64,000 nucleotides of DNA from a virus. A program made the translations under genes and the position numbers. The DNA is taken from positions 11,997 through 75,996 of the IMG/VR virus record IMGVR_UViG_3300036715_000213; one strand, given 5' to 3'. Numbering within the stretch: position 1 is the first letter of the stretch; every line of letters begins with the position of its first letter. This document shows positions 441-49,307 of the stretch, piece after piece. A model generated the notes under the pieces. It saw nothing but the letters and a program-made list of their open reading frames with translations, did no database searches and was not told the DNA's origin.

Positions 441-833
441 CTATTGTAATGTTTGATGTGTCTCAAATGTAAAGACATCAGTTGATGGTTCTTCTAAAGT
501 TTGATTCATAGCTGATGGAATCTCCAGCTTATTCACTAATTTGACATACATCCGATGAGCATCAGGATGCATTGGTGACAATACCATAATAGACGTAGTC
601 GGTATAAAGAAGAGACGAGTCTTAGAGAATGGCATCCAGGACTGACTATTTATCTCATTACGCATTCCATTTTCATCCATAATAGGAATAGTTCGAACTA
701 GAACTGGACTTTCAACAATGATTCCATGCTCACGTTCGTCAACAAGAGTCACCATCAATTCCTCACCTGTGGTAAGTTTCATCGTATAAAGCAGTTGATT
801 TGCTTGAGGAACTGATTCTAAGTTTTCGGTCAT
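441..833 (-). CDS. Conserved T4-like hypothetical between uvsW and gp55 (possible Sm-like fold)
   Basis: KLTTGEELM...SWMPFS pattern; ATG at 833 overlaps the uvsW stop (ATGA). Confidence 0.7.
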   Translation of the reverse strand: MTENLESVPQANQLLYTMKLTTGEELMVTLVDEREHGIIVESPVLVRTIPIMDENGMRNEINSQSWMPFSKTRLFFIPTTSIMVLSPMHPDAHRMYVKLVNKLEIPSAMNQTLEEPSTDVFTFETHQTLQ

Positions 834-2176
834 GTTATTGTTAGTTTTCTGAGTGTCCATGAAAAACTTTCCTTCTCATAGATGCTGATACGATCTTCTA
901 AGTGATTTTGTGTTGTATTCTTGAACGACTTCCAGCTAAGGTCATCAGCGATGTCGTACAATACGCACTTCTCCTTTCCCTTGTTCAAACGTAGTCCACG
1001 GCCGATAGATTGACGAATGCGAATTGTTGATTTGCTTGGAATAGCAAAAATTATATTCCTGATGCTCGGTATGTTGACACCAGTAGACATTAGCGCGCTA
1101 TTAGCAACAACAATTGCATCCGTCTCCGTACTTAGTATGTTACGAATACGTTCGCGTTCTTCAACGTCCACGCCACCGTGGATAAAGTAAACTTTCCGGT
1201 CAGTAATTTCCCGTATCATTTTCTCAATAATAGCGCCGTGACGATCCACGAAGTTGAACAGCACTAGAGTGTTACCCTTAACAACTGATGCTAGTTTTGC
1301 AATGAAACGATTCCGTGGTTCGTATGCAACCAAGAAAGCAATCTCCTCTTGGTATGTCATTCCCTTATAGGCTTTCCGTATGTGCTCTGGGTACTGTAAC
1401 ACTGTACAATTAATGTCCAATTGTGACACCTGTCCGTTGTCCATTAGTTCCTTAGTGGAAATAACTTTGTAGATTGGACCCATTAGTCCTTGTAAAACAA
1501 GTGCGTTAATCTTTGCATCGTCAATCGTACCCGTTGTTCCAATACGATACTTGGTAAGGATAAAACGTTCCATAACACTCGAAGCAATACCTGATTTTTG
1601 TGTGTGACAATTTGAAACCATTACACCATTAGCAAAATAATTATGATTATCTTTCACATGTAAATTATATGTATCTTCGTCATTGTTTATCAATTGTATT
1701 TCACTAATACCAGACCACTCTACAAAATCTTCATACCAATAGCCAAGCTCGCGACGCGTTTTACCTAACATAGTTTTTGGTATTTTATTTTTACTTGCGT
1801 TAATAGATTGACAAGTTATAATTTTTTGTGAATTTTTGCACCATTGTGCTTCACGTCCAATTAGACTTGTAAAAACTCCCGAAGGAGTATGGTATAATCC
1901 CTTACATTGTATCGGGTACCATTCTTGCGATCCCCAATATTGCTTATCTACAATGTTTATAGTTTTTGTTTCATTAGAGTATCTATATTTTACTGTTAAT
2001 TTTTCTTTTCTGTTAGTAGTAAGATCACTTCGATTATAAAAATCTTCCTTGGATACTGTTTCAACTAAGCCGCTAGCGTTTCTAGCTCTAACTTTATTTT
2101 TTTGTGCTATACTCATATTCAATCTCATTTTAGATGAGTCATAATTTAACCATCTAATTCTATTGTTCTTTACCAT
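830..2176 (-). CDS. uvsW: UvsW helicase C-terminal part, preceded by an endonuclease-like remnant and the C-intein
   Basis: After VSN: CHTQK, IGTTGT (motif III), STGVNIPSI, QSIGRGLR (motif VI); intein block F/G YNLHVKDNHNYFANGVMVSN. Confidence 0.9.
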   Translation of the reverse strand: MVKNNRIRWLNYDSSKMRLNMSIAQKNKVRARNASGLVETVSKEDFYNRSDLTTNRKEKLTVKYRYSNETKTINIVDKQYWGSQEWYPIQCKGLYHTPSGVFTSLIGREAQWCKNSQKIITCQSINASKNKIPKTMLGKTRRELGYWYEDFVEWSGISEIQLINNDEDTYNLHVKDNHNYFANGVMVSNCHTQKSGIASSVMERFILTKYRIGTTGTIDDAKINALVLQGLMGPIYKVISTKELMDNGQVSQLDINCTVLQYPEHIRKAYKGMTYQEEIAFLVAYEPRNRFIAKLASVVKGNTLVLFNFVDRHGAIIEKMIREITDRKVYFIHGGVDVEERERIRNILSTETDAIVVANSALMSTGVNIPSIRNIIFAIPSKSTIRIRQSIGRGLRLNKGKEKCVLYDIADDLSWKSFKNTTQNHLEDRISIYEKESFSWTLRKLTIT

Positions 2177-2464
2177 GCTTTATGATATACGAATTTTTGA
2201 ATTAATAGTTAATTCGTCTACTCTTACCCATCCACTAGCAGTCATAATTTTATGATTTCCAGTTACTTCAAGAAATTTTCCATTTTTTAATTTGATTTTA
2301 TATTTCTGTTCTGTAGAAATATTTTTGTGAAGTTTTATGACTGGTTTGTACTCAACATTTAATGTAGTTTCATTAATTGTTTTTACCATATCTCCGACAT
2401 TTATTTCTTTAATTTTCTTGAAAATATTATTTTCCAATTCAATTAAAGAATCACCAGCCAAACA
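1610..2464 (-). mobile_element. Intein in the UvsW Walker B motif (DE|CH), split by an in-frame TAA at 2180-2182
   Basis: Starts CLAGDSLI after WDE; block B TGNH; ends VSN followed by Cys+1; visibly more AT-rich than the flanks. Confidence 0.9.
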
Positions 2465-3190
2465 CTCATCCCAGATACCAACTTCAGTACGCTTTACGAT
2501 TTCGTCGAACTTCTTTGGGTCGTTTTTCATCATAGATGCTAGCGATTGCCATGTGCTAATTACGACTGACTTTTCAAAGACACGTTCCTTGCCACTATAC
2601 AGAGTGCTACAATGTTCTTCAGCATTCCATCCATTTTCACTGCTGTAATCTTCAAAGTCGCTAAACAATTGTTCCACTAGCATTGTAGTGGGTACAACAA
2701 TCATTAGCTTACGTCCATGCTCAATGTGCCAGCGAATGATACACATAATAATCATTGACTTACCGGAAGCTGTTGGGCTTAGCAATAGCTGGCGCTCATT
2801 GGAGATTGCTTGCCAGACAGCTTCATATTGGTACTCGCGAATGTCTAACTTGTCACCGCGTCCATGTAGATCTAAACTGTCAACAAAATCCTTTGCCTTC
2901 TCATAAGTTACTTCCAGAGCATTGGAGTTCTTTAAAGATTTGTCGATGAAAAGCTCGTAGTCACGGTTCTTGGCAAACTTGATTATCTCATGGATAAGAC
3001 CTTTGTACAGTTGCTTGTTCCGCATGTTGAACAAACGAATCTTCCCGTCCCACATTTTGTTCTTGTAGGAAGGCATGAATCGATATCCCGGAGCCATGAA
3101 CGTAAAATACTCGCTGATTTCTTGTTCAATGCCGTAGTCATCCGTCTCAATACGGATGTAGGTTTCGTTACATGGGATAACTTTTATCAT
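2180..3190 (-). CDS. uvsW: UvsW helicase N-terminal part fused to a 94-aa N-intein
   Basis: PGYRFMPSYKNKMWDGKIRLF, REYQ, SPTASGKS (Walker A), STWQS, WDE|C. Confidence 0.92.
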   Translation of the reverse strand: MIKVIPCNETYIRIETDDYGIEQEISEYFTFMAPGYRFMPSYKNKMWDGKIRLFNMRNKQLYKGLIHEIIKFAKNRDYELFIDKSLKNSNALEVTYEKAKDFVDSLDLHGRGDKLDIREYQYEAVWQAISNERQLLLSPTASGKSMIIMCIIRWHIEHGRKLMIVVPTTMLVEQLFSDFEDYSSENGWNAEEHCSTLYSGKERVFEKSVVISTWQSLASMMKNDPKKFDEIVKRTEVGIWDECLAGDSLIELENNIFKKIKEINVGDMVKTINETTLNVEYKPVIKLHKNISTEQKYKIKLKNGKFLEVTGNHKIMTASGWVRVDELTINSKIRIS

Positions 3191-3621
3191 GCGCCTGCTC
3201 TAAATTTAGTCCAATCGATAGCTGCCCGAATTGACCAGTTACGGTTTTTAATTTCACTCAACACACTCTCAAGAAAATAGATTGTAGTTTTCATGTAAGA
3301 TTCGCGAGCCATGAACTTCTGATACTCAGCATCCGCATCAATCAGTTCCGGAATGTCGCTCTTGAGTGTCCGGTATTGCCATTGTGTCCAACCACGATCA
3401 GTTAGTTCTTCCTTGGTCATTTCGCCGCGAAAATACTTTCCCTTGACTGCCTTTAGTTCAGCAATCTCATGAGTAATTTTTGTGTGCTTTAGTTTGGCTG
3501 TAATCAACTCGTCCAGATACTTTGCGTGAAGCATTGGCGTGGATATTGCTGCGTTACCCAAGTCATCTTTGATGACGCAGTCGTTAGCCCATGATAGTTT
3601 CAGTTCATCAAGTGTCGCCAT
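3187..3621 (-). CDS. uvsY: Recombination mediator UvsY
   Basis: PMLHAKYL and IKNRNWSIRAAIDWTKFRAG; directly upstream of uvsW. Confidence 0.9.
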   Translation of the reverse strand: MATLDELKLSWANDCVIKDDLGNAAISTPMLHAKYLDELITAKLKHTKITHEIAELKAVKGKYFRGEMTKEELTDRGWTQWQYRTLKSDIPELIDADAEYQKFMARESYMKTTIYFLESVLSEIKNRNWSIRAAIDWTKFRAGA

Positions 3622-3645: not shown

Positions 3646-4179
3646 TTATGATACTGAATAATAGGAGTAGGAAATAGTTAGAGTTGCAACAAGGTACTGA
3701 ACATCGCTATTGTTAGCTTGGAATGTTAGTCCAGTTAGCGATACTGGGAACGCATCTGTAAAGGTAAAACGTTTCAGCGGCTTGTTATCGCTATCTAAGA
3801 TAGTCAGTGAACAATCAGAAACAGCTTTGCTATTTTCACTGTAACCTTGTGCGTTGCGTTCTGCAGAAATCAATTCACGATACCATTTGTGTCCTTCGGG
3901 AAATCCAAGTCCAATCATCCAATCGTGAATAGCAAGATAGTTTGCCATCTTTTCGTCCACTAGGAACTGGATAGTCAGGTCATCAAAGTCAAGTGCTTCG
4001 CCGGGCATGTTAAAGTCATGTACACTGTTTGCCATGACTGCTTTACCTAAAGTAATACCCGGCAATGGAGCCTCTTGGACAAAGTAAGTTAGCTCCGGGT
4101 ATTTCTGAATCGAGAACAGAAACCCATTTGGATTTAAAGCACTGATATTATCAGGAACTGGGCATGTAAGAATTGGAAT
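3646..4179 (-). CDS. gp3: Tail terminator/completion protein gp3, probable ATT start
   Basis: Frame extends 38 codons past the tracked TTG through LNPNGFLFSIQKYPELTYF; FLVDEKMANYLAIHDW and FTDAFPVSL motifs; AAGGAG 7 nt before ATT. Confidence 0.8.
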   Translation of the reverse strand: MPILTCPVPDNISALNPNGFLFSIQKYPELTYFVQEAPLPGITLGKAVMANSVHDFNMPGEALDFDDLTIQFLVDEKMANYLAIHDWMIGLGFPEGHKWYRELISAERNAQGYSENSKAVSDCSLTILDSDNKPLKRFTFTDAFPVSLTGLTFQANNSDVQYLVATLTISYSYYSVS

Positions 4180-4240: not shown

Positions 4241-4774
4241 TTAGACGTAGTCCTTATTAATTGTTTCTGACTTGAAATTTGCTAGGTTAATAGACAACGA
4301 AATATTAGCGGAATTTAGTTTGTCTTTGTAATAGTGTGCTTCTTCAACACTCATATTGTATCTTAGTGTAACATGCGGTCTGTACTCTGGAAAAGAGTGT
4401 TGCATACCCATAGACTTTAGGTATTCATGCATTCTGTTTAGAAGTGGATTCTGTAGTTCCATGACAATACAACTCTTAGCTTCGTCACGAACACCTTCTT
4501 CCGGAAGCGAATCGAAGCATTCAAAATGTACGACTTCAGCTTTTATCTCTCTTGGAAACATAGAAGTGATATTAGCCATTGCTTTGTCTGGATTAACACT
4601 ACTATCAGTACTGTACATGAGGGTACAGTGATAATCGCCATTTGGTGGCGCTTTTCCAGACACTGGTTCTTGCATGCCTATTCTAGCGAAAAACGCGCCA
4701 AGATCCTCCGAATCTATGCAGACATAGTTGCCTTTTCCAGTAGTTTCTATCAAATAATCCTTAAAAGTCTTCAT
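4241..4774 (-). CDS. acb1: 2H phosphoesterase, T4 gp57B/Acb1-like anti-CBASS nuclease
   Basis: Two HxT motifs (YHCTLMYS, YRPHVTLRY) and GMQHSFPEY, laid out as in T4 57B; alternative start at 4810. Confidence 0.8.
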   Translation of the reverse strand: MKTFKDYLIETTGKGNYVCIDSEDLGAFFARIGMQEPVSGKAPPNGDYHCTLMYSTDSSVNPDKAMANITSMFPREIKAEVVHFECFDSLPEEGVRDEAKSCIVMELQNPLLNRMHEYLKSMGMQHSFPEYRPHVTLRYNMSVEEAHYYKDKLNSANISLSINLANFKSETINKDYV

Positions 4775-4775
4775 G

Positions 4776-4825
4776 ATTTTATCCAGTATATTTTTAATGG
4801 TTTTGTACATAATTTTATCCAGTAT
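4776..4825. repeat. 14-bp direct repeat preceding both in-frame ATGs of the Acb1-like gene
   Basis: ATTTTATCCAGTAT at 4776-4789 and 4812-4825, period 36. Confidence 0.8.
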
Positions 4826-4834
4826 TTAGCCATG

Positions 4835-4863
4835 AAAAAGCCCAGCGGTTAAACTGGGCTTTT
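4835..4863 (-). terminator. Intrinsic terminator after gp23 (bidirectional geometry)
   Basis: AAAAAGCCCAG-cggttaaa-CTGGGCTTTT. Confidence 0.85.
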
Positions 4864-4892: not shown

Positions 4893-6161
4893 TTACATCA
4901 AATTCGCGACGGTCACCTTACGAAAATAAATGTTCTGACCAGATGCCAGCGATGTGAATGGGTTAGCTACGAAACCGTAACGTGTACGGAACGCAATCTT
5001 TGGCTGGAACGTAGCTGGGTCAACAGCACGGTACAGTTGCAATGGAACGTATGGGCAGTAGAATGCACCAGCGTCAAAGCTGCTTGTACCCTTGTAACCA
5101 ACCATCAGGAACTGAGAAGCAGTTTGGTTAGCAGCGAACGGATCCACATAAACCTTGTACTTACCATTCAACACACCAGCGAAAGTGCTGGAAGCTTCAT
5201 CAACGTTTAACTTAGTCGACAGTGCTGGAGCGTAGTCCAGAACACCAGCCATGCTCAGTGCGCTTGCAACGTCTGCAGAGCAAACGATGAAGTTACCACG
5301 ACCACGACGTGTTTGTTGATAAATCGCATTAGCTTCACGCTCGATTTGGAACAACAGACCCTTGAACTTTTCAACAGACCAACGACCGTTAGAGTCAACG
5401 TCCAAGTCGAAAGTACCAGCAGTAGCTGTACCAACTTGAGCACCTGGCTTAGCAGCACTGTAAACAGTACGGATAACTTCACGGTTGATTTCGTTCAAGA
5501 TTTCTTGAGACAAAATGTTGCTCAGTTCAGCTTCAGCATCCAGACCGTGTACAGCCTTCAAGTCTTGAGCCAATTCAACGCTGTACTCTGCCTTCAACGC
5601 ACGGCTTTGGGCTGTAACGGAAGTCTTTTCAATGCTGAATGCCATTTCACCGAAGTTAGTTGGCGATGCACCGGAACCTGTTTGAGTTTCAGCTGTTGCT
5701 GTTGAGTAAGCTGTACCAGTTGTAGCACCAGGACCTGCTGGGCCCATTGTACCGTCAGCGTGTGTACCTGTACCAGAGAAGTCAGTGTCTGCTTCGTTGA
5801 ACAACGCTTCAGTACCACCTTGTGTACCATACTTGCTCTTCATAGCAAAGATCAGGCCAGTTGGCTGAGTCATTGGCTGAACACCACACATGTCATATGC
5901 AATCATTGCTGGCATTGCACGACGTACCAAGCTAATCAACACTGGGTCGAACTTAGCTACACCACCTGTATCAGGCATTGCACCAGCGGAGTTGGTTGGA
6001 GCAGCTTCGAACAGTGCTTGACGTTCGTCACGGTTAGCAATTTCTTGGTTCTCCAGCAAAACTGCTGTAACTTCACGGCGGTGTTGCTCAGTAATAGGAG
6101 CTGCGCCTTCGGCATCCAGAACTGGAGCCCACTTTTTAACTAGATCTGCACGAGATGTCAT
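4893..6161 (-). CDS. gp23: Major capsid protein
   Basis: KKWAPVLD, LLENQE, GVQPMTQPTGLIFA, RALKAEYSVELAQDLKAVHGLDAE, FYCPYVPL; start moved to MTSRAD. Confidence 0.98.
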   Translation of the reverse strand: MTSRADLVKKWAPVLDAEGAAPITEQHRREVTAVLLENQEIANRDERQALFEAAPTNSAGAMPDTGGVAKFDPVLISLVRRAMPAMIAYDMCGVQPMTQPTGLIFAMKSKYGTQGGTEALFNEADTDFSGTGTHADGTMGPAGPGATTGTAYSTATAETQTGSGASPTNFGEMAFSIEKTSVTAQSRALKAEYSVELAQDLKAVHGLDAEAELSNILSQEILNEINREVIRTVYSAAKPGAQVGTATAGTFDLDVDSNGRWSVEKFKGLLFQIEREANAIYQQTRRGRGNFIVCSADVASALSMAGVLDYAPALSTKLNVDEASSTFAGVLNGKYKVYVDPFAANQTASQFLMVGYKGTSSFDAGAFYCPYVPLQLYRAVDPATFQPKIAFRTRYGFVANPFTSLASGQNIYFRKVTVANLM

Positions 6162-6192: not shown

Positions 6193-7227
6193 TTACTTAA
6201 TAGCCTTAACGTACTGTGCCATCGCTGGGTCAATACGCTTAACTTCTTCATTCAATGAACCTACTGGAGCGTTCGAATCTTGTGTAACGTCTTCAGTTAG
6301 TTCCTTAACTTCCTTCTTTGAACCTTTGTTAGAAACATAGTTCTCAGCAATTACTGCTAGCTTCTTAGTAAAAGATTCTTCATCGTCGAACTGAATTTCT
6401 TCAGACAATAGTGCAAACTTTTCAGCATCGATATCAGTCATACCATTGGTAGCTTCGTCGATAGCGGTCTGCTTTGCATACTGCTTAATTATCTTGTTCA
6501 GTTCAATATTTTGAGCAACTTGCTCATCAAGAGTTTCTTCAATTGCTTCGACTTTTTCTTGCAGAGATTCTACAAGACTAAATTCGTCATCTGGAAGATT
6601 AATGTTGTGCTCAACGAACACGTCTTTCATCTTATCAATGAAGCTTTCAAAGATTTCAGCTTTGATGCCACGCTCAAGGGCGATTTCATTATTTTTCATC
6701 CATTGCTCGACGATGAAGTCGAGGTATCCATCAACTTTTTCAACTAACCCCTCTTTTAGTTCTTCGGACTCAGTTAGAGCACGGAGAGCCAATTCTTCTT
6801 CCAGTGATTCCTGAATTTGGGAAACACGAGCGGAAACTGCTGCTTCAAAAATTGTAGTAGCTTTTTCCTTAAATTCTTCTGTAAGTTCAACACCGTCGAA
6901 TAGTGAGCCCAAATCAATAGCTTCCTTAACAGTGCCTGGCTTCATCTTAGGTTGTGGATCTTGTCCGCCAGCCTTACGCTTAATCTTTGCATTCTTAGTA
7001 GCAACATCATCAGTTGTCTGATCAGTAGCTGCTTGAGACTGATTTGGATCAGTAGCTTCCTTAACGTCCTTCTTAGACTTAGTTTCGTCTTCCGAACCGT
7101 CTTCGATTTCGTCATCGCAACAATCGTCAGAATCGTCAGAATCGTCAGAATCTATATCCGACTTCTTGCTTGCTTTTAGAGCCATTGCAGCTTCCTGCAA
7201 TGCTTTGATCTTATCTTCTAGTGCCAT
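6193..7227 (-). CDS. gp22: Prohead core scaffold protein
   Basis: LTEEFKEKATTIFEAAV, VDGYLDFIVEQW; acidic coiled coil between gp21 and gp23. Confidence 0.93.
   Translation of the reverse strand: MALEDKIKALQEAAMALKASKKSDIDSDDSDDSDDCCDDEIEDGSEDETKSKKDVKEATDPNQSQAATDQTTDDVATKNAKIKRKAGGQDPQPKMKPGTVKEAIDLGSLFDGVELTEEFKEKATTIFEAAVSARVSQIQESLEEELALRALTESEELKEGLVEKVDGYLDFIVEQWMKNNEIALERGIKAEIFESFIDKMKDVFVEHNINLPDDEFSLVESLQEKVEAIEETLDEQVAQNIELNKIIKQYAKQTAIDEATNGMTDIDAEKFALLSEEIQFDDEESFTKKLAVIAENYVSNKGSKKEVKELTEDVTQDSNAPVGSLNEEVKRIDPAMAQYVKAIK
7122..7152. repeat. 9-bp tandem repeat in gp22 encoding (DSD)n
   Basis: AATCGTCAG x3 plus a partial copy. Confidence 0.85.
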
Positions 7228-7264: not shown

Positions 7265-7921
7265 TTAACTCTTGATGGTCTTCAAGAACTTTTGAAACTG
7301 GCGAATTGCCGTTTCTTCTAGTTGCTTCTTAGAGGCAGTATGAATTGCCTTCTTTGCTGCTTCAATTTCACGTTCTTCGTAACGTCCATCAATGTAAACC
7401 CAATCACGGCTTTCGTTAATAGCATTAACCCAGCAATCAATACCACTTGGGTCTGATACTGCGTCAATAGCCATCATTGCAAAGTCGTCCTTCACGTAAG
7501 TAGTACCAGCGCGTTCCTCAATGGAACCCAAACCACGTGTTGAAACACCCATTTGCACACCACCCTCAAGAAGTCCTTTTAGAACATTACCTTGTGGTGT
7601 GTTGAGTACTTTTGCTTTACCGTAAACGTCGTTGCCTTCGCAACGTAGTGTAGTAATCAAGTGTGATGCAAGTTCTGGTTTAACAGTTGGACGCGACTCT
7701 GGGTGACTTAGTTCCCCCAAAGCACGGCGATTATTAACAAACTCGTTAACATACTTGTTGACTGCATTTTCCATGATATCTCTTGGATAAATGCGTCCGT
7801 TGCGATTCTTTTTCTCTGCTTGTGCAAAGATACCTTCAATGAACAGTGTCTTGCTATCACCAGTACCTTCGGTAATAATCTGCACATTATTAAAGTCGAT
7901 TGATTCTCTAAGGAATTTCAT
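7265..7921 (-). CDS. gp21: Prohead protease
   Basis: NRNGRIYP, ALGELSHP, GVSTRGLGS, DAVSDPS. Confidence 0.96.
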   Translation of the reverse strand: MKFLRESIDFNNVQIITEGTGDSKTLFIEGIFAQAEKKNRNGRIYPRDIMENAVNKYVNEFVNNRRALGELSHPESRPTVKPELASHLITTLRCEGNDVYGKAKVLNTPQGNVLKGLLEGGVQMGVSTRGLGSIEERAGTTYVKDDFAMMAIDAVSDPSGIDCWVNAINESRDWVYIDGRYEEREIEAAKKAIHTASKKQLEETAIRQFQKFLKTIKS

Positions 7922-7922
7922 T

Positions 7923-8333
7923 TTAGCTTCCTACCACTGCTGGGTTATCGTAAGAACCAAACTTCTCTGGCTCAACTGAACTAATATATCCAGACTTACG
8001 CAATGTTACATATAGTTGAGCTGTACCAACGGATGTTACAACAAGGTCTGAACCTGATCCGATGTTATCAGCAAAACCGCCGTTACCACCAAAGTCCAGT
8101 TGACCGTTTTGATATAGTTGAAGAATCTGCGTACCGCCGCGAGTAATAGTTACTTGATCAGAAGCTCCTGGACTATTTGCCCATGCAACAAAAACAATCG
8201 TTGCATCTGGTGTGCCACCAATTTGTGTAGCAAGACGCAAAGCTGTGTTCAGCGTTAGCGTATCATTAAGTGTTATACCAGCAAACTTAACTACTGCCAA
8301 GTTATGGGTATTTTTAAGGATTGAGATTGCCAT
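7923..8333 (-). CDS. Hypothetical virion protein in the head cluster
   Basis: Tightly packed between gp20 and gp21; beta-rich. Confidence 0.6.
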   Translation of the reverse strand: MAISILKNTHNLAVVKFAGITLNDTLTLNTALRLATQIGGTPDATIVFVAWANSPGASDQVTITRGGTQILQLYQNGQLDFGGNGGFADNIGSGSDLVVTSVGTAQLYVTLRKSGYISSVEPEKFGSYDNPAVVGS

Positions 8334-8342
8334 TTTATACTC

Positions 8343-8921
8343 TTACTTGGTAGACTTTGGTTTACGGTCATCAGCTGAGTTACGGCGCCCTGCGCGGGGA
8401 TCGTATGCAGAATCCTTAGGAGCATCCGGCACTGTCTTTGCAGAGAGTACATTACCATCCTTATCCTTCTTTACTGAACCAGGAACAACGGCTTCTTCAA
8501 CGGCTTCTTCTTGTACGCTGAACAAGTTAGATGCAATTTCAATACGGTGATTGTCAATAGCTACAGATAACTTATTAGACATGATTTCGTTAAACGAAGC
8601 GTCAATATCAAGTGTCTTACCAGCAGAGATTGCATCAATGAGTTCTCTAACTTCTTCTGTCAAAGTAAACTCTTCTTTAATGATGGAGTGTGTATCTGCT
8701 CCACCCATCTTTGCTCGAGCGCGAACTGCGTCAGGGGCATTAGCGTGAGTAGACATGATCTTACCAGTAGTCTTGTTCTTTACGTGGTACTTGGACTTCT
8801 TTGCGACTATAGGAGCATTTGAGTGTTGTGATACAAACTCACGCTCCGCTGCGTACCCCATTGCTGCAGCACTAGCTTCGTTGATTTCCTCTTCAGTTAG
8901 TTCGATTAAATTCTTTGCCAT
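8343..8921 (-). CDS. Prohead core protein (gp67/gp68 position)
   Basis: Follows portal; many L/I-x-E protease-like sites; ELIDAI...F segment. Confidence 0.6.
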   Translation of the reverse strand: MAKNLIELTEEEINEASAAAMGYAAEREFVSQHSNAPIVAKKSKYHVKNKTTGKIMSTHANAPDAVRARAKMGGADTHSIIKEEFTLTEEVRELIDAISAGKTLDIDASFNEIMSNKLSVAIDNHRIEIASNLFSVQEEAVEEAVVPGSVKKDKDGNVLSAKTVPDAPKDSAYDPRAGRRNSADDRKPKSTK

Positions 8922-8922
8922 T

Positions 8923-10641
8923 TTATTTTCCTGCCTTAGGTTTAGTTGGTGTTGGCTTCTTCATCTTATTTATACGTTCGCCATGCACTTCATCATTCTG
9001 GTCAAGCTTCTGTTGGTGCAACTCATCGCTTTGTTGCATCTCTTGGTCTTGGGCTTCTTGATCTTGTGCCATTTGATCTTGTTGCATTTGCAGCGCATCA
9101 ACTGGATTACCATCAGCGTCAACTGTTGGTGTACCTGGAATAACTGGGTTAGCAGCAATACCTTCTTCAGCGATTTCCTCGGCAATTTCATCAATCTCTT
9201 CTTCGGTCATATTAAGGACATTACGTTGAATCCATGCCTTCGAGAAATACTTACCGGAGTACTGATCAACTTGTGCCAAAGCCCCGATCTTATTCTGTAG
9301 GATTTCCAAGTTCTTCAGTTCAGCAAAGTGATTGTCTTGGATAAAGTCGTAGCGGAGTTTTAACTTGATAGAATCCCAGTCTTGGAGACTAATAATGCCC
9401 TTTGCTACTAACTGTACCTTCAACAAATCGGTGAACAAGCTAGAGAACTTCATACGAAGCTTTCCAATAAACTTGCTAAACTTCAACTCGTCGCGAGTGA
9501 TAGTCTGAGACTGTCCGAGTGTAAATCCGGATTCTTCTTTAGTGCGACTGTTTGGGACGTTCAACGATTGTTGAAGTTTCTTCTTGAAATACTCCAAGTC
9601 GTCAAGCTGGCTCATGTTTTGAGCGCCAGCTAATGTAGTAATTTCCGTACCCTTACCGCCTTCGCGACGTGGCATCCAGAAGTCTTCCATCATGGACATA
9701 TGACGTTTGCTGTCCGCAACTTCACCAGTGTGAGCATCATAAACAAGTTTGTTCTTAAACTTGTTCATCATGTCAGTAACGTATTGCTCAGCTTTGTGCT
9801 TTGGCAAGTTACCAACGTCAATGTAGAAAATACGACGTTCCGGGGCGCGAGTTAAACGATAGATAACTACCGCGTCCTCGATCATCCGGAGTTGGTTAGC
9901 TGGCTTGACCGCTTTGTCTAGGTGACCAACAACCATACCGTTATTGCCGTCAATGTTACCAGATGTACAGAGAACAACTGAATCCAAGGACATTTTAATA
10001 CCTTGGATGTTTTGCTCTGTAATGCCCTTTTCATTGTAGATGTAATACTCGTCAATGGAGATAACAATGTCCAGACCTTGCTGGTTCTTACCTTTGTTGA
10101 TTTGTTTTACACGTTTAATCTTACGTGGATCAATTAGACGAATTTCAGCGATACCTTCTTTTGTATTCTCTTTCTCAAACAAGATGTGAGCATACAAACG
10201 TCCGTCAACATACCATTGACGGAAGATGTCGTGACCCTTTTCGTTAAAGTCCAATACATTAAGCAGATTTTGAAATTCCTCTTGGAACTTCTTCTTGATG
10301 CCTGAAGGCGCTTGTAGTAGATCCAGTTGTAATTTAACTGGAAAGTCTTCTTGGTCAGTAACGATTGCTTCGTTAACGATATCCTCAATAGCCGAGTCAA
10401 CCTCTTGAAATTTCGCAACGTTGCGATAGCGAGAGATTAACTCGTTTTCAGTCTTGACTTGGCCTTCAATATCAAACGTTAAACCATAATGTTGACCCAT
10501 ACTGCCCGTAGCAGTATCGACAACAATTGCGCCATTATCGCTCTGGGGAGCAATTATTGACGGTATTTGTTCTTGGTCACTAGTCTTTCGTTTAAACTGA
10601 AAGCCAAACAATTGTTGTAATAATGAATTAGCTGTTGACAT
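8923..10641 (-). CDS. gp20: Portal vertex protein
   Basis: WYVDGRLY, EDAVVIYRLTRAPERRIFYIDVGNLP, EDFWMPRREGGKGTEITTL. Confidence 0.97.
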   Translation of the reverse strand: MSTANSLLQQLFGFQFKRKTSDQEQIPSIIAPQSDNGAIVVDTATGSMGQHYGLTFDIEGQVKTENELISRYRNVAKFQEVDSAIEDIVNEAIVTDQEDFPVKLQLDLLQAPSGIKKKFQEEFQNLLNVLDFNEKGHDIFRQWYVDGRLYAHILFEKENTKEGIAEIRLIDPRKIKRVKQINKGKNQQGLDIVISIDEYYIYNEKGITEQNIQGIKMSLDSVVLCTSGNIDGNNGMVVGHLDKAVKPANQLRMIEDAVVIYRLTRAPERRIFYIDVGNLPKHKAEQYVTDMMNKFKNKLVYDAHTGEVADSKRHMSMMEDFWMPRREGGKGTEITTLAGAQNMSQLDDLEYFKKKLQQSLNVPNSRTKEESGFTLGQSQTITRDELKFSKFIGKLRMKFSSLFTDLLKVQLVAKGIISLQDWDSIKLKLRYDFIQDNHFAELKNLEILQNKIGALAQVDQYSGKYFSKAWIQRNVLNMTEEEIDEIAEEIAEEGIAANPVIPGTPTVDADGNPVDALQMQQDQMAQDQEAQDQEMQQSDELHQQKLDQNDEVHGERINKMKKPTPTKPKAGK

Positions 10642-11246: not shown

Positions 11247-13415
11247 TTATGCGTTTGCTTTACCCGCAATTTCAGTAAAAGCTACACCAGTACGAGTAGC
11301 GATGAAATTCAACTGAATAAAGTTGATCGAACGGTTTGGCTTTAAGTAAATATCAGCTACAAAACGGTTTGTATCAATAACTTCACCGGTGTTGTTTGAT
11401 TCGTCGCAAACAACCAAGAAGTCTGTCAAACCACGACGTCCACGTACATCACGCAAAAACGGTGTTACCATACCTACGAACTGTGCACGTGTAAATCCAT
11501 CGTTAAACTCAAACAATTGGAACTTGGATGCAGTAGCGATTGCCTTTTCCAGCACAATAAACAAACGGCGTACATTAATACGATCGAATGCACTTGGCTT
11601 AGCCAAGGCTGTCTTGTCACCGTACAGAACAACACCTTGTCCTGGGAATGCTACAACAGGGTTAATACCGCTCTTGTACAGGTTATCACGGTCAGTACGC
11701 TTTGGAGAGAAAGCCAACTTAACAGTGTTCTTAATCTGACCGCGGTTGAAACCAGCTGGAGAGAACCAAGGATCATCAGTGTTGTCAGTACGAGCGCACA
11801 AACCAGCAACATCACCATTTAATGGAACCCAACGGTATTGGTCATTATACTTGTCGTATTGGTATTTGTAACCGCTATCAATAACACCGTATGAACTAGA
11901 TGTAATCAGTGCGCGATATGCAAGGATTGCAGTAGTAATGCTGCTATCGTTACCAATCAGTGGAGCTCCTGATGTAATGTTCTGTGGAGACACAAAAGCG
12001 ATACAGTCCTTACGAACTTCTGCAATGTTCTGGATAACATAGTTAGCCAAAGTTGCATCTGCTGGACCAACAGCAATCAGGTTAACGTCATACTGCTCGT
12101 CATTGTTGAACAAGTCAAATGCCAGCATCTTTTGTGCGTTAGTTGATGTGAAGTGGTCAACACCAGCAACCAAATCGTTCGTAACTGCGCCAGCAGCCTT
12201 GAAACCTGCGGCTGTAACTGCTACGGCTGCATTAGCTGCCAAAGTAACCGCAGTTGCGCTTGTGAATGTCGCCACAGTACCAATCAAGGCACCTGTAAGA
12301 TTGTACAGCTTACGACCTACATCAGATGATGCGAATGCTGTACCAACACCAGTAATAGTTGCTGCACTAGTTGTGCAAGTAATTGTACCAGTTTGTGCGG
12401 TAATCAGCGACTTGTATGTACCAGCAACAAGGTCAGTACTCCAACTCAATTCGCCAACTACAGCAGTCAATTGAACTGTATCATCAGTCCACAAAACATA
12501 CTTGGAATTGTTGTTAATCACGTTTTTGTAGTAAGCCGATGTACCGTCTTCCTTACGTGTATTAGCCGCCTTGGAAATATATGGGTAAATTTCCAGAATA
12601 CCACCAGCGGTACCAGTCCAGCGACCAGCTTGGTCAATAACTACAACGTGCATTTCGTCGTTAGATGCGCCAACTTGTGCTGCGTCCGTAGATGTACCAG
12701 GAGCACCGCTAAACAGATCTTTGTAGGCCCATGTAGCGTAAGAACTTGCGTCTGCCATCGAAACACGTAGCGAGTTACCAAGAGTACCTGGATACTTTGC
12801 AGCCCACTCACCAATAACGCCTTGACCACTGCTATAATTATTCGCATAATCAGAGTCGTTGTTAATCTTAATACCGCCTTGAGCGGTTACAACAGTACCG
12901 ATAACGGCAGGAGTTGTGTTTGTACCAGAAACAGTAACTACTGGAACTGTATCGTAACCAGTACCAGCGTTAGTGATAACGATACCAGTAATAATACCGC
13001 TAGCAACAGTAGCAGTAGCAGTAGCTTGAATACCACCGGTAGTTGTTGGGGCTGGAATATTAACTGTTACAGTACCAACGTAAACTGTACCACCGGAAGT
13101 TACTGGAATAGATGTGATAGAACCAGTAGTGTTGGAAACTGCATTACGCTGGTTAGTAGTATCGCTACGAACAACCAACAGGTTATTAGAATAAGCTAGA
13201 AAGTTTGCTGCATTAATCCATCCAGCTGCATTAGATGCGTTTGGCTTACCAAAACGGCTTGCGAGTGTATTTTCCGACTCAACTGTGGTAACGTCCATAA
13301 CTGGACCCCATGCTGCATCAATAACGGCGGCACCCACCGATGTTGAAACTGCTGGGATTACGTTGGTTAGGTCCTTTTCAGATACTGTAACTGATGGAGA
13401 AAGTGCGATTGCCAT
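11247..13415 (-). CDS. gp18: Contractile tail sheath protein
   Basis: SPSVTVSEKD, YPGTLGN, PWFSPAG, AFDRINVRRLF. Confidence 0.97.
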   Translation of the reverse strand: MAIALSPSVTVSEKDLTNVIPAVSTSVGAAVIDAAWGPVMDVTTVESENTLASRFGKPNASNAAGWINAANFLAYSNNLLVVRSDTTNQRNAVSNTTGSITSIPVTSGGTVYVGTVTVNIPAPTTTGGIQATATATVASGIITGIVITNAGTGYDTVPVVTVSGTNTTPAVIGTVVTAQGGIKINNDSDYANNYSSGQGVIGEWAAKYPGTLGNSLRVSMADASSYATWAYKDLFSGAPGTSTDAAQVGASNDEMHVVVIDQAGRWTGTAGGILEIYPYISKAANTRKEDGTSAYYKNVINNNSKYVLWTDDTVQLTAVVGELSWSTDLVAGTYKSLITAQTGTITCTTSAATITGVGTAFASSDVGRKLYNLTGALIGTVATFTSATAVTLAANAAVAVTAAGFKAAGAVTNDLVAGVDHFTSTNAQKMLAFDLFNNDEQYDVNLIAVGPADATLANYVIQNIAEVRKDCIAFVSPQNITSGAPLIGNDSSITTAILAYRALITSSSYGVIDSGYKYQYDKYNDQYRWVPLNGDVAGLCARTDNTDDPWFSPAGFNRGQIKNTVKLAFSPKRTDRDNLYKSGINPVVAFPGQGVVLYGDKTALAKPSAFDRINVRRLFIVLEKAIATASKFQLFEFNDGFTRAQFVGMVTPFLRDVRGRRGLTDFLVVCDESNNTGEVIDTNRFVADIYLKPNRSINFIQLNFIATRTGVAFTEIAGKANA

Positions 13416-46785: not shown

Positions 46786-49307
46786 TATGCTACCGAGATG
46801 ATTGTTGTTAGGTTCGGGCTAACACGTTTGTCGTTTACCATTGTAAACTTCTCCATACGCAATCCACGCTTGTCGTTAAACGCAACATGAATCCATGTTG
46901 ATGATCCACGAGTCTCAAAAATCAACTGAGTATATGCTGGCAATAGTTTAGCGATTTCAACGGCTGCTTCGTAATGTTGCATACGGTTAAATCCGCTCAA
47001 CTGGAAGTCACAAGCACACCCATATAGGTGATCGGATGTTGTAGATCCGCCTTTTGGAACGCTATTACGGAATCCGCTGGTTGGGTGCATGTTTGGATAC
47101 GCCTTCTTGATTGGCTCGAGACAGTTTTCAGCCAGCTTCTTTAGGTTACATACTGCTTCAGCTCGAGTGAGTTGAACTGCTGGAGGTGAGCTTAGACGAT
47201 CTCCATTCAAGTCTCTCAACTTAAAGTTTGGACTCAACTGGAACGACAAGTCAACAGGACCTTCGTTTGGAATCATCGAGCAGTCAGTTACCTTTGGATT
47301 TGGTTTTTTCTGATCAGTTGTGTCTTTAATTTCTTCAGTTTGTGGCGCACTATCATTTGGTGCTTGAGTTGGATCCGAGCTGTCAGTTACACCACTTGCT
47401 TCCAGCTTCTTATTGTAATCTGTTGGATCTCCATCCTCTGGAGTTTCATATTGAGCAACTTGTTCATCGCTACGAGTCGGAACTTGAAGTGTTGGGAAGT
47501 CTGGCAAGCCACCAGCCGAACCTTTTCCAGTTACATTACTGAGACTCTGTCCTTTACCGCTGTTCAAGTCAAGACGGCTTCCATCCCATGAACCAGATCC
47601 GCCAGTATTGATCATAGTGTTACCGCCAGAAGCGATGTTAATATCACCCTTGACATTCATGTTCAAATCACCAGTAATACCCAGGTTAAAATCGCCACCA
47701 ACTGTTTGGTTAACGTTACCAAGTACATCAATGTTAGCATCGTTTTCGACGCGAATATTATTATTCCCAATGATTGTCACGTTCAACGATCCACGAATTA
47801 GAACGTTACCGTTCCGTTCCAGGATTTCATATGCGTCACCAACAATACGATTAACTCGTGTTCCGTTAACATCAATTTCCTCATATGTTCCGGAGCGGTG
47901 ATATGTATGGATACGTTCGTTACCCTCTGTATCATCAAACTCTTGTACGTGTCCGCTTTCAGTTACACGCGCATGATTATATGGATACTTGGCATTGTAT
48001 GGGATTGGAGGTTGACTCCATTTACCGTCGCCTCCCGAGATAACACCCTTTGCGCGTGCTGACTCTTTAGCAAACACAATAGTCTGGTCAATCTTTTCGT
48101 GACGTGCTAGACGATGTGTATCCGGCTCATCGAAGAACTTTGGATAAACGCCGTTTGGATCCTTAAATCCTTCTAGCTTACGAGTTTCAGTAGTCGTTGA
48201 TCCAGTTTGTTTCGCATCAGCTGCACCTGGTTGTTCCCCGGGCGCGTATGGAGTGACAACTGGATTTTGAGTTGCGGCATCAACTACTGGTTGTGTTTGC
48301 TCTGGAGGTGGAGTAACACTACTCATGTCCTTTGTTGGGAATCCATCCTTACTAAACAGAGCTTTTTCACGACCGCGGCGCGCAGCTAATGTGCCTTTGT
48401 TGTTTCGAAATGTAGTAATCAAGGCAGCAGCTTGTTCGTAGTTTGCCGCATTGACTGCACTGAATACTGCGGAACTTGTCATGCCATCAACACCCGCATT
48501 GTACGCCATGGATACAAGCGCATCAAACATACTTTGAGTAACTGGAGCAGTCAGCTTCTTCTGTATCTGTGGACCAAAAAAGTTGTTAACTGCATCCTTC
48601 ATCAACGCATCCGCTTCATCCTTTGTTAGACGAGTTTCTGATGTAACTGGATTCGATTTACCACCATTGAGAAACGTAGATCCCCACCCAATAGTCCAGA
48701 TACCCTTTGTATCTTGATATGGATATATTGGAGTATTTCCAGCTAAAGCATTGAACTTCTCGACACGGATGTAATTGTTCTTACCTTCAACAGTGCTACT
48801 GAACGCTTCTTCATCTCGGATGCTAGTAAAGCAATCAGGACCAGGAACTAAGGCAGACGTTGGCTTCTTGATTGTCGAATCAACTGCGCTTAACTTACCT
48901 TCTGGAGCCTTTGGCGTTCCAGATTGTACTGGATCACCCGAGCTGTCTTTGAGAATAAAACCGTCGGATGTTGTCCAAACTGCTGACTCAGTAGTAAGAA
49001 CAACCTCTACTGACTTATCAACAGGTTTAACAGGAATACCAGCAACTGATCCAATGATGATTGGTTGCTGTTGATTTTCATCGCGGAAAATAACAATAAC
49101 AGTCGTACCCTCAACCAATCCTGTTGGCGATTGTCCAATACCGCTATTAGCAGCACTAGTGATTGGCTGCATAATTGTAGCCCAAGGTAAATCTGCTGTT
49201 GGTAACTCTACTTTGTCTGGCGAGTGTAATCCCAAGACACGGACACGGCAACGGCCCAGTTTTAGCGGGTCGTTTAGACGATCTTCAACTACTCCAACAT
49301 AGTACAT
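46785..49307 (-). CDS. gp5: Baseplate hub/spike with lysozyme and C-terminal M15 peptidase
   Basis: DPLKLGRCRVRV OB-fold, YQDTKGIWTIGWG lysozyme, YPYNH..ESGH..EFDDT..ERI beta-helix, SGFR..SDH..ACD..WIHV peptidase. Confidence 0.92.
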   Translation of the reverse strand: MYYVGVVEDRLNDPLKLGRCRVRVLGLHSPDKVELPTADLPWATIMQPITSAANSGIGQSPTGLVEGTTVIVIFRDENQQQPIIIGSVAGIPVKPVDKSVEVVLTTESAVWTTSDGFILKDSSGDPVQSGTPKAPEGKLSAVDSTIKKPTSALVPGPDCFTSIRDEEAFSSTVEGKNNYIRVEKFNALAGNTPIYPYQDTKGIWTIGWGSTFLNGGKSNPVTSETRLTKDEADALMKDAVNNFFGPQIQKKLTAPVTQSMFDALVSMAYNAGVDGMTSSAVFSAVNAANYEQAAALITTFRNNKGTLAARRGREKALFSKDGFPTKDMSSVTPPPEQTQPVVDAATQNPVVTPYAPGEQPGAADAKQTGSTTTETRKLEGFKDPNGVYPKFFDEPDTHRLARHEKIDQTIVFAKESARAKGVISGGDGKWSQPPIPYNAKYPYNHARVTESGHVQEFDDTEGNERIHTYHRSGTYEEIDVNGTRVNRIVGDAYEILERNGNVLIRGSLNVTIIGNNNIRVENDANIDVLGNVNQTVGGDFNLGITGDLNMNVKGDINIASGGNTMINTGGSGSWDGSRLDLNSGKGQSLSNVTGKGSAGGLPDFPTLQVPTRSDEQVAQYETPEDGDPTDYNKKLEASGVTDSSDPTQAPNDSAPQTEEIKDTTDQKKPNPKVTDCSMIPNEGPVDLSFQLSPNFKLRDLNGDRLSSPPAVQLTRAEAVCNLKKLAENCLEPIKKAYPNMHPTSGFRNSVPKGGSTTSDHLYGCACDFQLSGFNRMQHYEAAVEIAKLLPAYTQLIFETRGSSTWIHVAFNDKRGLRMEKFTMVNDKRVSPNLTTIISVA

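Follow-up and report, generated by a model that had tools for sequence, protein, structure and literature searches.

An Acb1-family phosphodiesterase of an uncultured marine T4-like phage bears a capsid-targeting-like decapeptide and is a candidate for packaging and injection

We analyzed a 64,000-nucleotide (nt) window of viral DNA (positions 11,997 to 75,996 of IMG/VR record IMGVR_UViG_3300036715_000213), which lies within a 76-kb contig of an uncultured marine T4-like myovirus. An open reading frame (ORF) at 4241-4774 of this window, on the minus strand, encodes a 2H phosphodiesterase of the Acb1/57B family, a family that degrades alarm nucleotides of bacteria, and its first ten residues, MKTFKDYLIE, resemble the capsid-targeting sequence found on T4 internal proteins. 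We consider it probable that the product is an Acb1-family nuclease with a working head-loading tag, cut after LIE by a gp21-type protease and delivered with the DNA. The tag is modular, is selected as a peptide, and co-occurs with T4-type head machinery; tagged enzymes of cyanophages are present in purified virions. For the protein of ORF 4241-4774 itself, we infer the targeting, cleavage, injection, and substrate.

The assignment of the ORF to the 2H phosphoesterases of the Acb1 type, made in a preliminary description of the window, was borne out by sequence and by fold. The Acb1 model of Pfam, PF23474, scored 49.5 bits at a cut-off of 27, and the sequence matched that of the solved Acb1 of phage FBB1 (PDB 7t26) with an E value of 1.8e-8. 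An AlphaFold model built on 24 homologues had a mean predicted local distance difference test (pLDDT) score of 85. The top five Foldseek matches of this model in the PDB were 9q2y (two chains), 9q2g, 7t26, and 7t27, with E values from 8e-9 to 5e-7, and all are of the Acb1 type. Both catalytic HxT motifs are present (Table 1), and H49, T51, and H134 are invariant in homologue alignments A2 and A5. Based on the Pfam score, the FBB1 match, the structural matches, and the intact motifs, the product is a real, distant member of the Acb1/57B family with an intact active site, and the enzyme is probably active.

Membership of the family leaves room for a different substrate. Specifically, the protein might be packaged and act early in infection as a general 2',3'-cyclic phosphodiesterase, in RNA-end repair, or on signaling nucleotides other than those of the cyclic oligonucleotide-based antiphage signaling system (CBASS). 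The 2H superfamily is functionally broad, with LigT, Usb1, and CPDase among the weaker Foldseek matches; the PHROGs label of the enzyme family is 'RNA ligase'; and the identity to characterized Acb1 proteins is only about 20-34%. We nonetheless regard this alternative as quite improbable. The Acb1 model scored well above its cut-off, whereas the generic model 2_5_RNA_ligase2 reached 19 bits, below its own cut-off of 27, and the five best structural matches were phage phosphodiesterases of the Acb1 type without exception. Separately, a different viral contig (L007:8591-11620, plus strand) has an open frame of ~1000 aa that contains an Acb1-like domain (~32% identity, 108 aa) and may encode polyprotein-type cargo.

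Read from the ATG at 4774, the N-terminus of the protein is MKTFKDYLIE-TTGKGNYV, in agreement with the start given in the preliminary description. Indeed, all 23 homologues begin at the MKTFK position, with the form M-x-[TSK]-F-K-x-[YFW]-L-x-E and identities of 34-62%, and judging from them the true start of the ORF is ATG 4774. The public gene call, cluster P0001, is 189 aa long and runs from an in-frame ATG at 4810, 36 nt upstream. This codon is created by the upstream copy of a 20-nt direct repeat, and the same 17-nt sequence stands before both ATGs. Translation from 4810 would bury the tag 12 residues inside the protein, where it would be useless as an N-terminal address. We consider such a start very improbable: in addition to the uniform start of the homologues, the upstream extension is absent in relatives L002 and L003, and if the CTAAATA heptamer at 4823-4829 is the promoter, the leader ahead of 4810 would measure only ~6 nt and lack a GGA.

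Within the decapeptide, F4, K5, L8, and E10 are invariant or nearly so among the 24 homologues, and L8 and E10 are at least 90% conserved. The L/I-x-E cleavage motif that had been claimed for the protein is thus present as L8-I9-E10, and the predicted gp21 cut after E10 (LIE↓TTGK) falls between codons 4745-4747 and 4742-4744. In the structural model, residues 1-10 have a mean pLDDT of 47, and the confident core begins with a strand at residue 15. Homologues were surveyed for the peptide using the 150 best Acb1 representatives from a library of 1.8 billion proteins. The strict tag was found in 39 of these, followed by 2-8 residues and then G-N/T-Y-V; near-tags occurred in many more, and 12 began directly at the G-x-Y strand, with no tag. 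The crystallized FBB1 chain starts ~8 residues later than T4 57B. A further arrangement was found in the homologue of contig L006 (9878-10501, plus strand), which has MKSFKQFMEG at its extreme N-terminus, then a 30-residue basic linker ending EIQE↓STSQGNYV, and so a second I-x-E site (EIQE↓S) just ahead of the enzyme core. Because of the low pLDDT, the untagged members, the start of the FBB1 chain, and the linker form of L006, we conclude that the decapeptide is a portable tag that lies outside the enzyme fold.

In the closest relative, whose complete genome measures 164.8 kb, no gene other than the Acb1 homologue has a tag-type start, and neither strict nor loose patterns found further tagged genes on the 76-kb contig.

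Across IMG/VR, the tag is carried by many other genes. The collection was scanned with degenerate DNA for M-K-[TS]-F-K-x-[YF]-[LIMF]-x-E, which returned at least 120 stretches versus 5 for a permuted control of the same codon classes. The matches listed amount to 128 ORF starts (124 distinct), nearly always true ORF starts. After removal of the tag, the 119 payloads among the matches listed fell into at least 59 unrelated clusters. Most of the tagged payloads listed belong to no Pfam family; those recognized include adenylate kinase, S-adenosylmethionine (SAM) lyase, an HD (SpoT-type) domain, HicA, GNAT, lysozyme, a DPBB lytic domain, and cytidylyltransferase. Only one of the payload families among the matches listed has a relative in the window, an untagged lysozyme at 48426-48737. 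Unrelated tagged genes also occur in tandem runs, with four in L050 (2357-3913, plus strand) and three in L041 (968-4988, minus strand), and one array member is a HAD-type phosphatase-like protein. These arrays resemble the hypervariable internal-protein loci of T-even phages. The tagged enzyme payloads are candidates for injected counter-defence or host takeover. Loci with such payloads in alignment A3, NMNAT-like enzymes included, are exemplified by L024, L025, L061, L084, and L101.

The tag is encoded by freely varying synonymous codons, also between members of a single four-gene array, and the DNA upstream of it is unrelated between loci. Selection on the tag therefore acts at the level of the peptide. 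The residue after E10, a position that the search pattern left free, is Ser or Ala in 71 of the 124 tagged ORFs listed (57%), and this excess is what a protease site predicts. Genes in common with the present T4-like genome (terminase, sheath, portal, protease, capsid) were found at 70 of the 120 tag loci listed, and all five of the long tag contigs tested encode an S77 protease. Two other roles for the tag were considered and rejected. One, a cassette or translation signal at the DNA level, conflicts with the free synonymous variation and the unrelated upstream DNA. The other, a lid or fold element of Acb1, conflicts with the low pLDDT, the members of the family that lack a tag, the linker form of L006, and the unrelated payload clusters.

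The likeness to the T4 capsid-targeting sequence, noted in the preliminary description, is evident in the T4 record. There, IPII and IPIII begin MKTYQEFIAE, and IPI begins MKTFKEF and has the site ITE↓A at residue 19. A shortened pattern matched four genes in the T4 genome, ipI, ipII, ipIII, and 61.1, versus no control matches. In T4, ipI directly adjoins 57B. Acb1-like proteins from phages outside the T4-like group carry no tag. Mullaney and Black, in 1996, reportedly described the capsid-targeting sequence that T4 internal proteins carry and its removal by gp21. A review also covers this sequence (PMC3012670).

The present phage encodes homologous head machinery. The catalytic motifs of its gp21-type protease, GELSHP and GVSTRGLGS, align with T4 gp21, and the maturation site of its gp23, ALFE↓AAPT, aligns with FLTE↓AEIG of T4. 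Since the gp23 site and the protease motifs are conserved, an L-I-E site inside the prohead should be cut. The gp21-type protease is presumed to be the remover of the tag and, by analogy with T4, the gp22-type scaffold is presumed to be the docking site of tagged cargo.

As a side observation, the 54-aa product of T4 gene 61.1 (L141:667-831, minus strand) consists of the perfect tag MKTFKEFIKE, a Gly-rich stretch, and a Lys-rich tail. Small tagged IMG/VR proteins with the same layout occur in L019, L053, and L110. Gene 61.1 either encodes a small internal protein that has been overlooked or warns against reliance on the tag by itself.

Tagged enzymes are present in the published virion proteomes of two cultured T4-like cyanophages. 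The S-CREM2 genome was searched with the pattern [AG]TG-K-x-[LF]-x-x-[FY]-[LIMF]-x-E, which gave four matches and none in the control: ORF6, a SAM hydrolase; ORF13; ORF14, an APH-like kinase; and ORF154, a cytidylyltransferase. The virion proteome table of this phage lists 52 of ~219 ORFs (PMC10665884), and all four tagged ORFs are among them (hypergeometric p = 0.003). None of the untagged ORFs 7 to 11, which are translated neighbors, is in the table. The S-CREM2 paper makes no mention of an N-terminal signal (PMC10665884). In S-SCSM1, the NMNAT encoded by ORF91 was detected in CsCl-purified virions, for which the authors gave no explanation (PMC9602691); its start is MKSFLQFLKE↓AA. For the two phages together, five of six tagged ORFs are in the published virion proteomes. 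Electrospray ionization tandem mass spectrometry identified a homologue of the largest tagged family among the structural proteins of the jumbo phage PA5oct; the start of this homologue, MKSFRDYYDA, is only tag-like.

No Acb1 was found in S-CREM2, S-SCSM1, HTVC008M, Melnitz, or S-PM2, and we found no cultured phage that has both a virion proteome and a tagged Acb1. The link from these proteomes to ORF 4241-4774 is therefore one of analogy. The strict tag is absent from the cytidylyltransferases of S-PM2, HTVC008M, and Melnitz. Separately, the virions of S-CREM2 contain a Cas9-like protein, ORF12 (L166:4005-6614, minus strand). As annotated, it shows a tag-like RFASFMAE↓AA at residues 17-25, which suggests a mis-set start or a buried tag.

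The conservation, distribution, and virion data bear on the main rival explanation, that the enzyme is a purely cytoplasmic late Acb1 whose inherited leader no longer directs packaging in this phage. Such a leader could be left over from an old fusion with a neighboring internal-protein gene, or could help expression or folding. The near-invariance of F4, K5, L8, and E10 at only 45-62% overall identity argues for current selection on the tag and cleavage motif, a peptide found on so many unrelated clusters cannot be an Acb1-specific leader, and tag-bearing enzymes are present in the virions of S-CREM2 and S-SCSM1. We thus judge this explanation unlikely. It draws nonetheless on the fact that a tag-like start is typical of much of the Acb1 family (39 strict tags and many near-tags among the 150 representatives), and on T4 Acb1, which functions with a decayed tag (PMC9117128). 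Moreover, CBASS is reportedly triggered late, by gp21 proteolysis (PMC12991175), so that late cytoplasmic expression beside the head genes would suffice.

Further points weigh against packaging and injection. The start of T4 57B, MMEFKDFSTG, is a decayed tag without L/I-x-E, and in cultured T4-type relatives, including Acinetobacter phage PhT2, the tag is decayed or missing: KVP40 has MKLSKFLES, Serratia phage 4S has MKLSDFSKQ, and Acinetobacter phage 133 (Acj133) has none. Because of these decayed and absent tags, the characterized Acb1 members evidently work without packaging. We know of no role for T4 Acb1 (57B) as a head protein, and T4 gp61.1, despite its perfect tag, is to our knowledge not a known head protein either. 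In ORF 4241-4774, the residue after the predicted cut is Thr rather than the commoner Ser or Ala. The cyanophage tags differ from MKTFKDYLIE at some positions; K5, for example, is not kept. ORF30 of S-SCSM1 (106 aa) is tagged and is not among the listed virion proteins, and the authors of both proteomes allow for co-purification of abundant cytoplasmic proteins with virions (PMC10665884, PMC9602691). The CTAAATA heptamer, taken alone, occurs at chance frequency within the window. The original paper on Acb1 contains no mention of virion or capsid, and no report of Acb1 in a virion was found in the literature.

On the packaging explanation, which we favor, the Acb1-family enzyme would be expressed at a late stage of infection, driven by a late promoter of its own next to the head genes. 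The tag would carry it into the scaffolding core during assembly, where the gp21-type prohead protease would cleave after L-I-E. The mature enzyme, with the N-terminus TTGKGNYV, would remain in the filled head, reach the next cell with the DNA, and hydrolyze cyclic oligonucleotides of the CBASS type as soon as infection begins. Copies left unpackaged would perform the same hydrolysis late, in the producing cell. Loading into heads and injection with the DNA, as proposed in the preliminary description, are partly supported; the accompanying proposal of action before phage gene expression is pure inference, and late cytoplasmic action fits the data equally well.

Features consistent with late expression were found upstream of the gene. 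The late promoter previously placed at 4823 corresponds to a late-promoter-like CTAAATA at 4823-4829. This heptamer also precedes gp22, at a distance of 18 nt, and the sheath gene, at 42 nt. Of 58 genes, 12 have the broader form HTAAATA at most 70 nt upstream, ~10 times the chance rate; most of the 12 are structural. Among the IMG/VR tagged genes listed, 35% have TAAATA at most 40 nt upstream, versus 18% of other ORFs. The terminator-like hairpin that follows gp23 was missed by a simple terminator scan; none of 200 shuffled sequences folded as well.

The genes around ORF 4241-4774 form a head-to-tail module (Table 1). At the DNA level, likeness to cultured phages is limited to short gp23 stretches of cyanophages, at 72-76% identity. 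The tagged gene was originally described as standing directly after gp23, which holds in this genome, where the spacer is 118 nt. In five related contigs (L002-L006), however, the gap is 0.3-4 kb and contains homing-endonuclease-like and TnpB-like inserts. Immediate linkage to gp23 is thus not general, and the constant neighbor of the tagged Acb1 gene in these contigs is the downstream gp3-like gene.

Table 1. Features of the window around the tagged Acb1-family gene, in window coordinates.
Feature	Position	Strand	Basis or remark
Portal gp20	8923-10641	-	
gp67/68-like core protein	8343-8921	-	
136-aa protein	7923-8333	-	
gp21-type prohead protease (S77)	7265-7921	-	Pfam PF03420, E 3.2e-40
gp22-type scaffolding core protein	6193-7227	-	Pfam T4_CASP, E 3.8e-66
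gp23 major capsid protein	4893-6161	-	Pfam Gp23, E 1.3e-135
Terminator-like hairpin and U-run after gp23	4832-4863	-	Folding free energy -17.1 kcal/mol, z -4.1
Late-promoter-like CTAAATA, 48 nt before ATG 4774	4823-4829	-	Heptamer shared with gp22 and sheath
Two 20-nt start-region copies, 18/20 identical, each ending in ATG	4808-4827 and 4772-4791 (span 4772-4827)	-	Direct reading
Acb1/57B-family 2H phosphodiesterase ORF, 177 aa	4241-4774	-	Pfam PF23474, structure, homologues
MKTFKDYLIE, T4-type capsid-targeting-like tag	4745-4774	-	Homologues, pLDDT, other payloads, T4 starts
First catalytic HxT motif, HCTL, residues 49-52	4619-4630	-	Aligns with HSTI of T4 57B
Second catalytic HxT motif, HVTL, residues 134-137	4364-4375	-	Aligns with HITL of T4 57B and FBB1 Acb1
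Peptide of the ORF 4241-4774 product			TTGKGNYVCIDSEDLGAFFAR
gp3/gp19-like tail gene	3646-4179	-	Synteny in L002-L006
uvsY	3187-3621	-	
uvsW	830-3190	-	

Other observations concern the neighboring genes. In relatives, the stretch from gp23 to the tagged gene is an insertion hot spot, with GIY-YIG-like and TnpB-like ORFs at L002:7986-9997, L004:5081-6263, L005:6050-9970, and L006:8396-9664; T4 offers a parallel in segD, which lies immediately after gene 23. The gp3/gp19-like tail gene has an apparent ATT start (4177-4179, minus strand), with AAGGAG 7 nt before it. Its N-terminus, IPILTCPVP, aligns with MPILSCPVP of L002, where the start is ATG. Either the start codon is a rare one or the ATT results from a sequencing error. 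The uvsW gene is broken by a Hint/intein element that is itself divided over two ORFs: ORF 2180-3190 terminates within the N-terminal splicing domain of the intein, and ORF 830-2176 opens ahead of the C-terminal splicing block, which ends ...VSNC. In L002 and L003, uvsW is uninterrupted. Possible explanations are a split intein, disruption of the endonuclease of an intein, and a frameshift.

Beyond this one enzyme, M-K-x-F-x-x-[FY]-[LI]-x-E may be a general head-loading address across the T4 superfamily, from coliphages to marine Kyanoviridae-type phages, a proposition that we advance only tentatively. If it is correct, the injected proteome of uncultured phages would be readable from sequence alone, and SAM lyases, NMNAT-like enzymes, kinases, HD-domain hydrolases, and HicA-like proteins would belong to the cargo as well. 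Acb1 would then be ancestrally injected and, in the present lineage, the sole such cargo, with the tag secondarily lost in T4 and its close relatives. Pre-loaded enzymatic counter-defence would be a major and so far unrecognized phage strategy.

Anti-CBASS nucleases are usually viewed as being produced after infection begins. A pre-made Acb1 that arrives with the genome would close the time window in which a signaling defence can fire, and would alter how Acb1-carrying phages are scored against CBASS hosts. In practical terms, the tag would provide a simple sequence rule for predicting the injected proteins of uncultured T4-like phages. It would also account for a published puzzle, the presence of a SAM hydrolase, NMNAT/cytidylyltransferase, and kinase in purified cyanophage virions. 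According to a preprint, CBASS is triggered by the gp21 protease itself (PMC12991175), which raises the question of whether a gp21-processed Acb1 is a matched countermeasure. Our literature search found no paper with the tag strings and none on an Acb1 that is tagged or packaged. What is new here is the collection-wide count of the tag with its control, the evidence of peptide-level selection, the tagged and untagged forms of Acb1, and the matching of tagged ORFs to published cyanophage virion proteomes.

Among the closest known systems is that of the T4 internal proteins IPI, IPII, and IPIII, which are small inhibitors of type IV restriction. They share with the protein of ORF 4241-4774 the N-terminal form M-K-T-[FY]-[KQ]-[DE]-[FY]-[LI]-x-E, ending in L/I-x-E, and the phage has homologous gp21, gp22, and gp23. 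The two-step leader of the L006 homologue resembles the arrangement of IPI in particular. Unlike in T4, the cargo is a 19-kDa enzyme and the phage belongs to a distant marine T4-like lineage. T4 Alt, an ADP-ribosyltransferase that is processed by gp21, packaged, and injected, is likewise an enzyme, as opposed to an inhibitor, and it travels in the head and is injected together with the DNA, although its fold, chemistry, and target differ. The cyanophage virion enzymes share the start M-K-x-F-x-x-F-L-x-E and are non-structural, with payloads other than Acb1.

Compared with known Acb1 enzymes, namely T4 gp57B and those of Erwinia phage FBB1 (7T26/7T27) and Burkholderia phage BCSR5 (9Q2G/9Q2Y), the protein has the same 2H fold, HxT motifs, and C-terminal aromatic segment. 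It differs in its ~20-34% identity and in its intact ten-residue tag with L-x-E. The gene order differs as well: the gene lies here in a head-to-tail module (gp23 ... gp3) with a late-type motif, whereas the T4 order is 3-1-57A-57B-ipI. A distant precedent for a virion-delivered anti-CBASS protein is Gp15 of the ICP3/T7-type ejectosome, an inhibitor of the CBASS effector CapV (bioRxiv 10.1101/2025.07.23.666291). Gp15, a structural ejection protein, acts by stoichiometric block of the effector, unlike a tagged nuclease that would destroy the signal.

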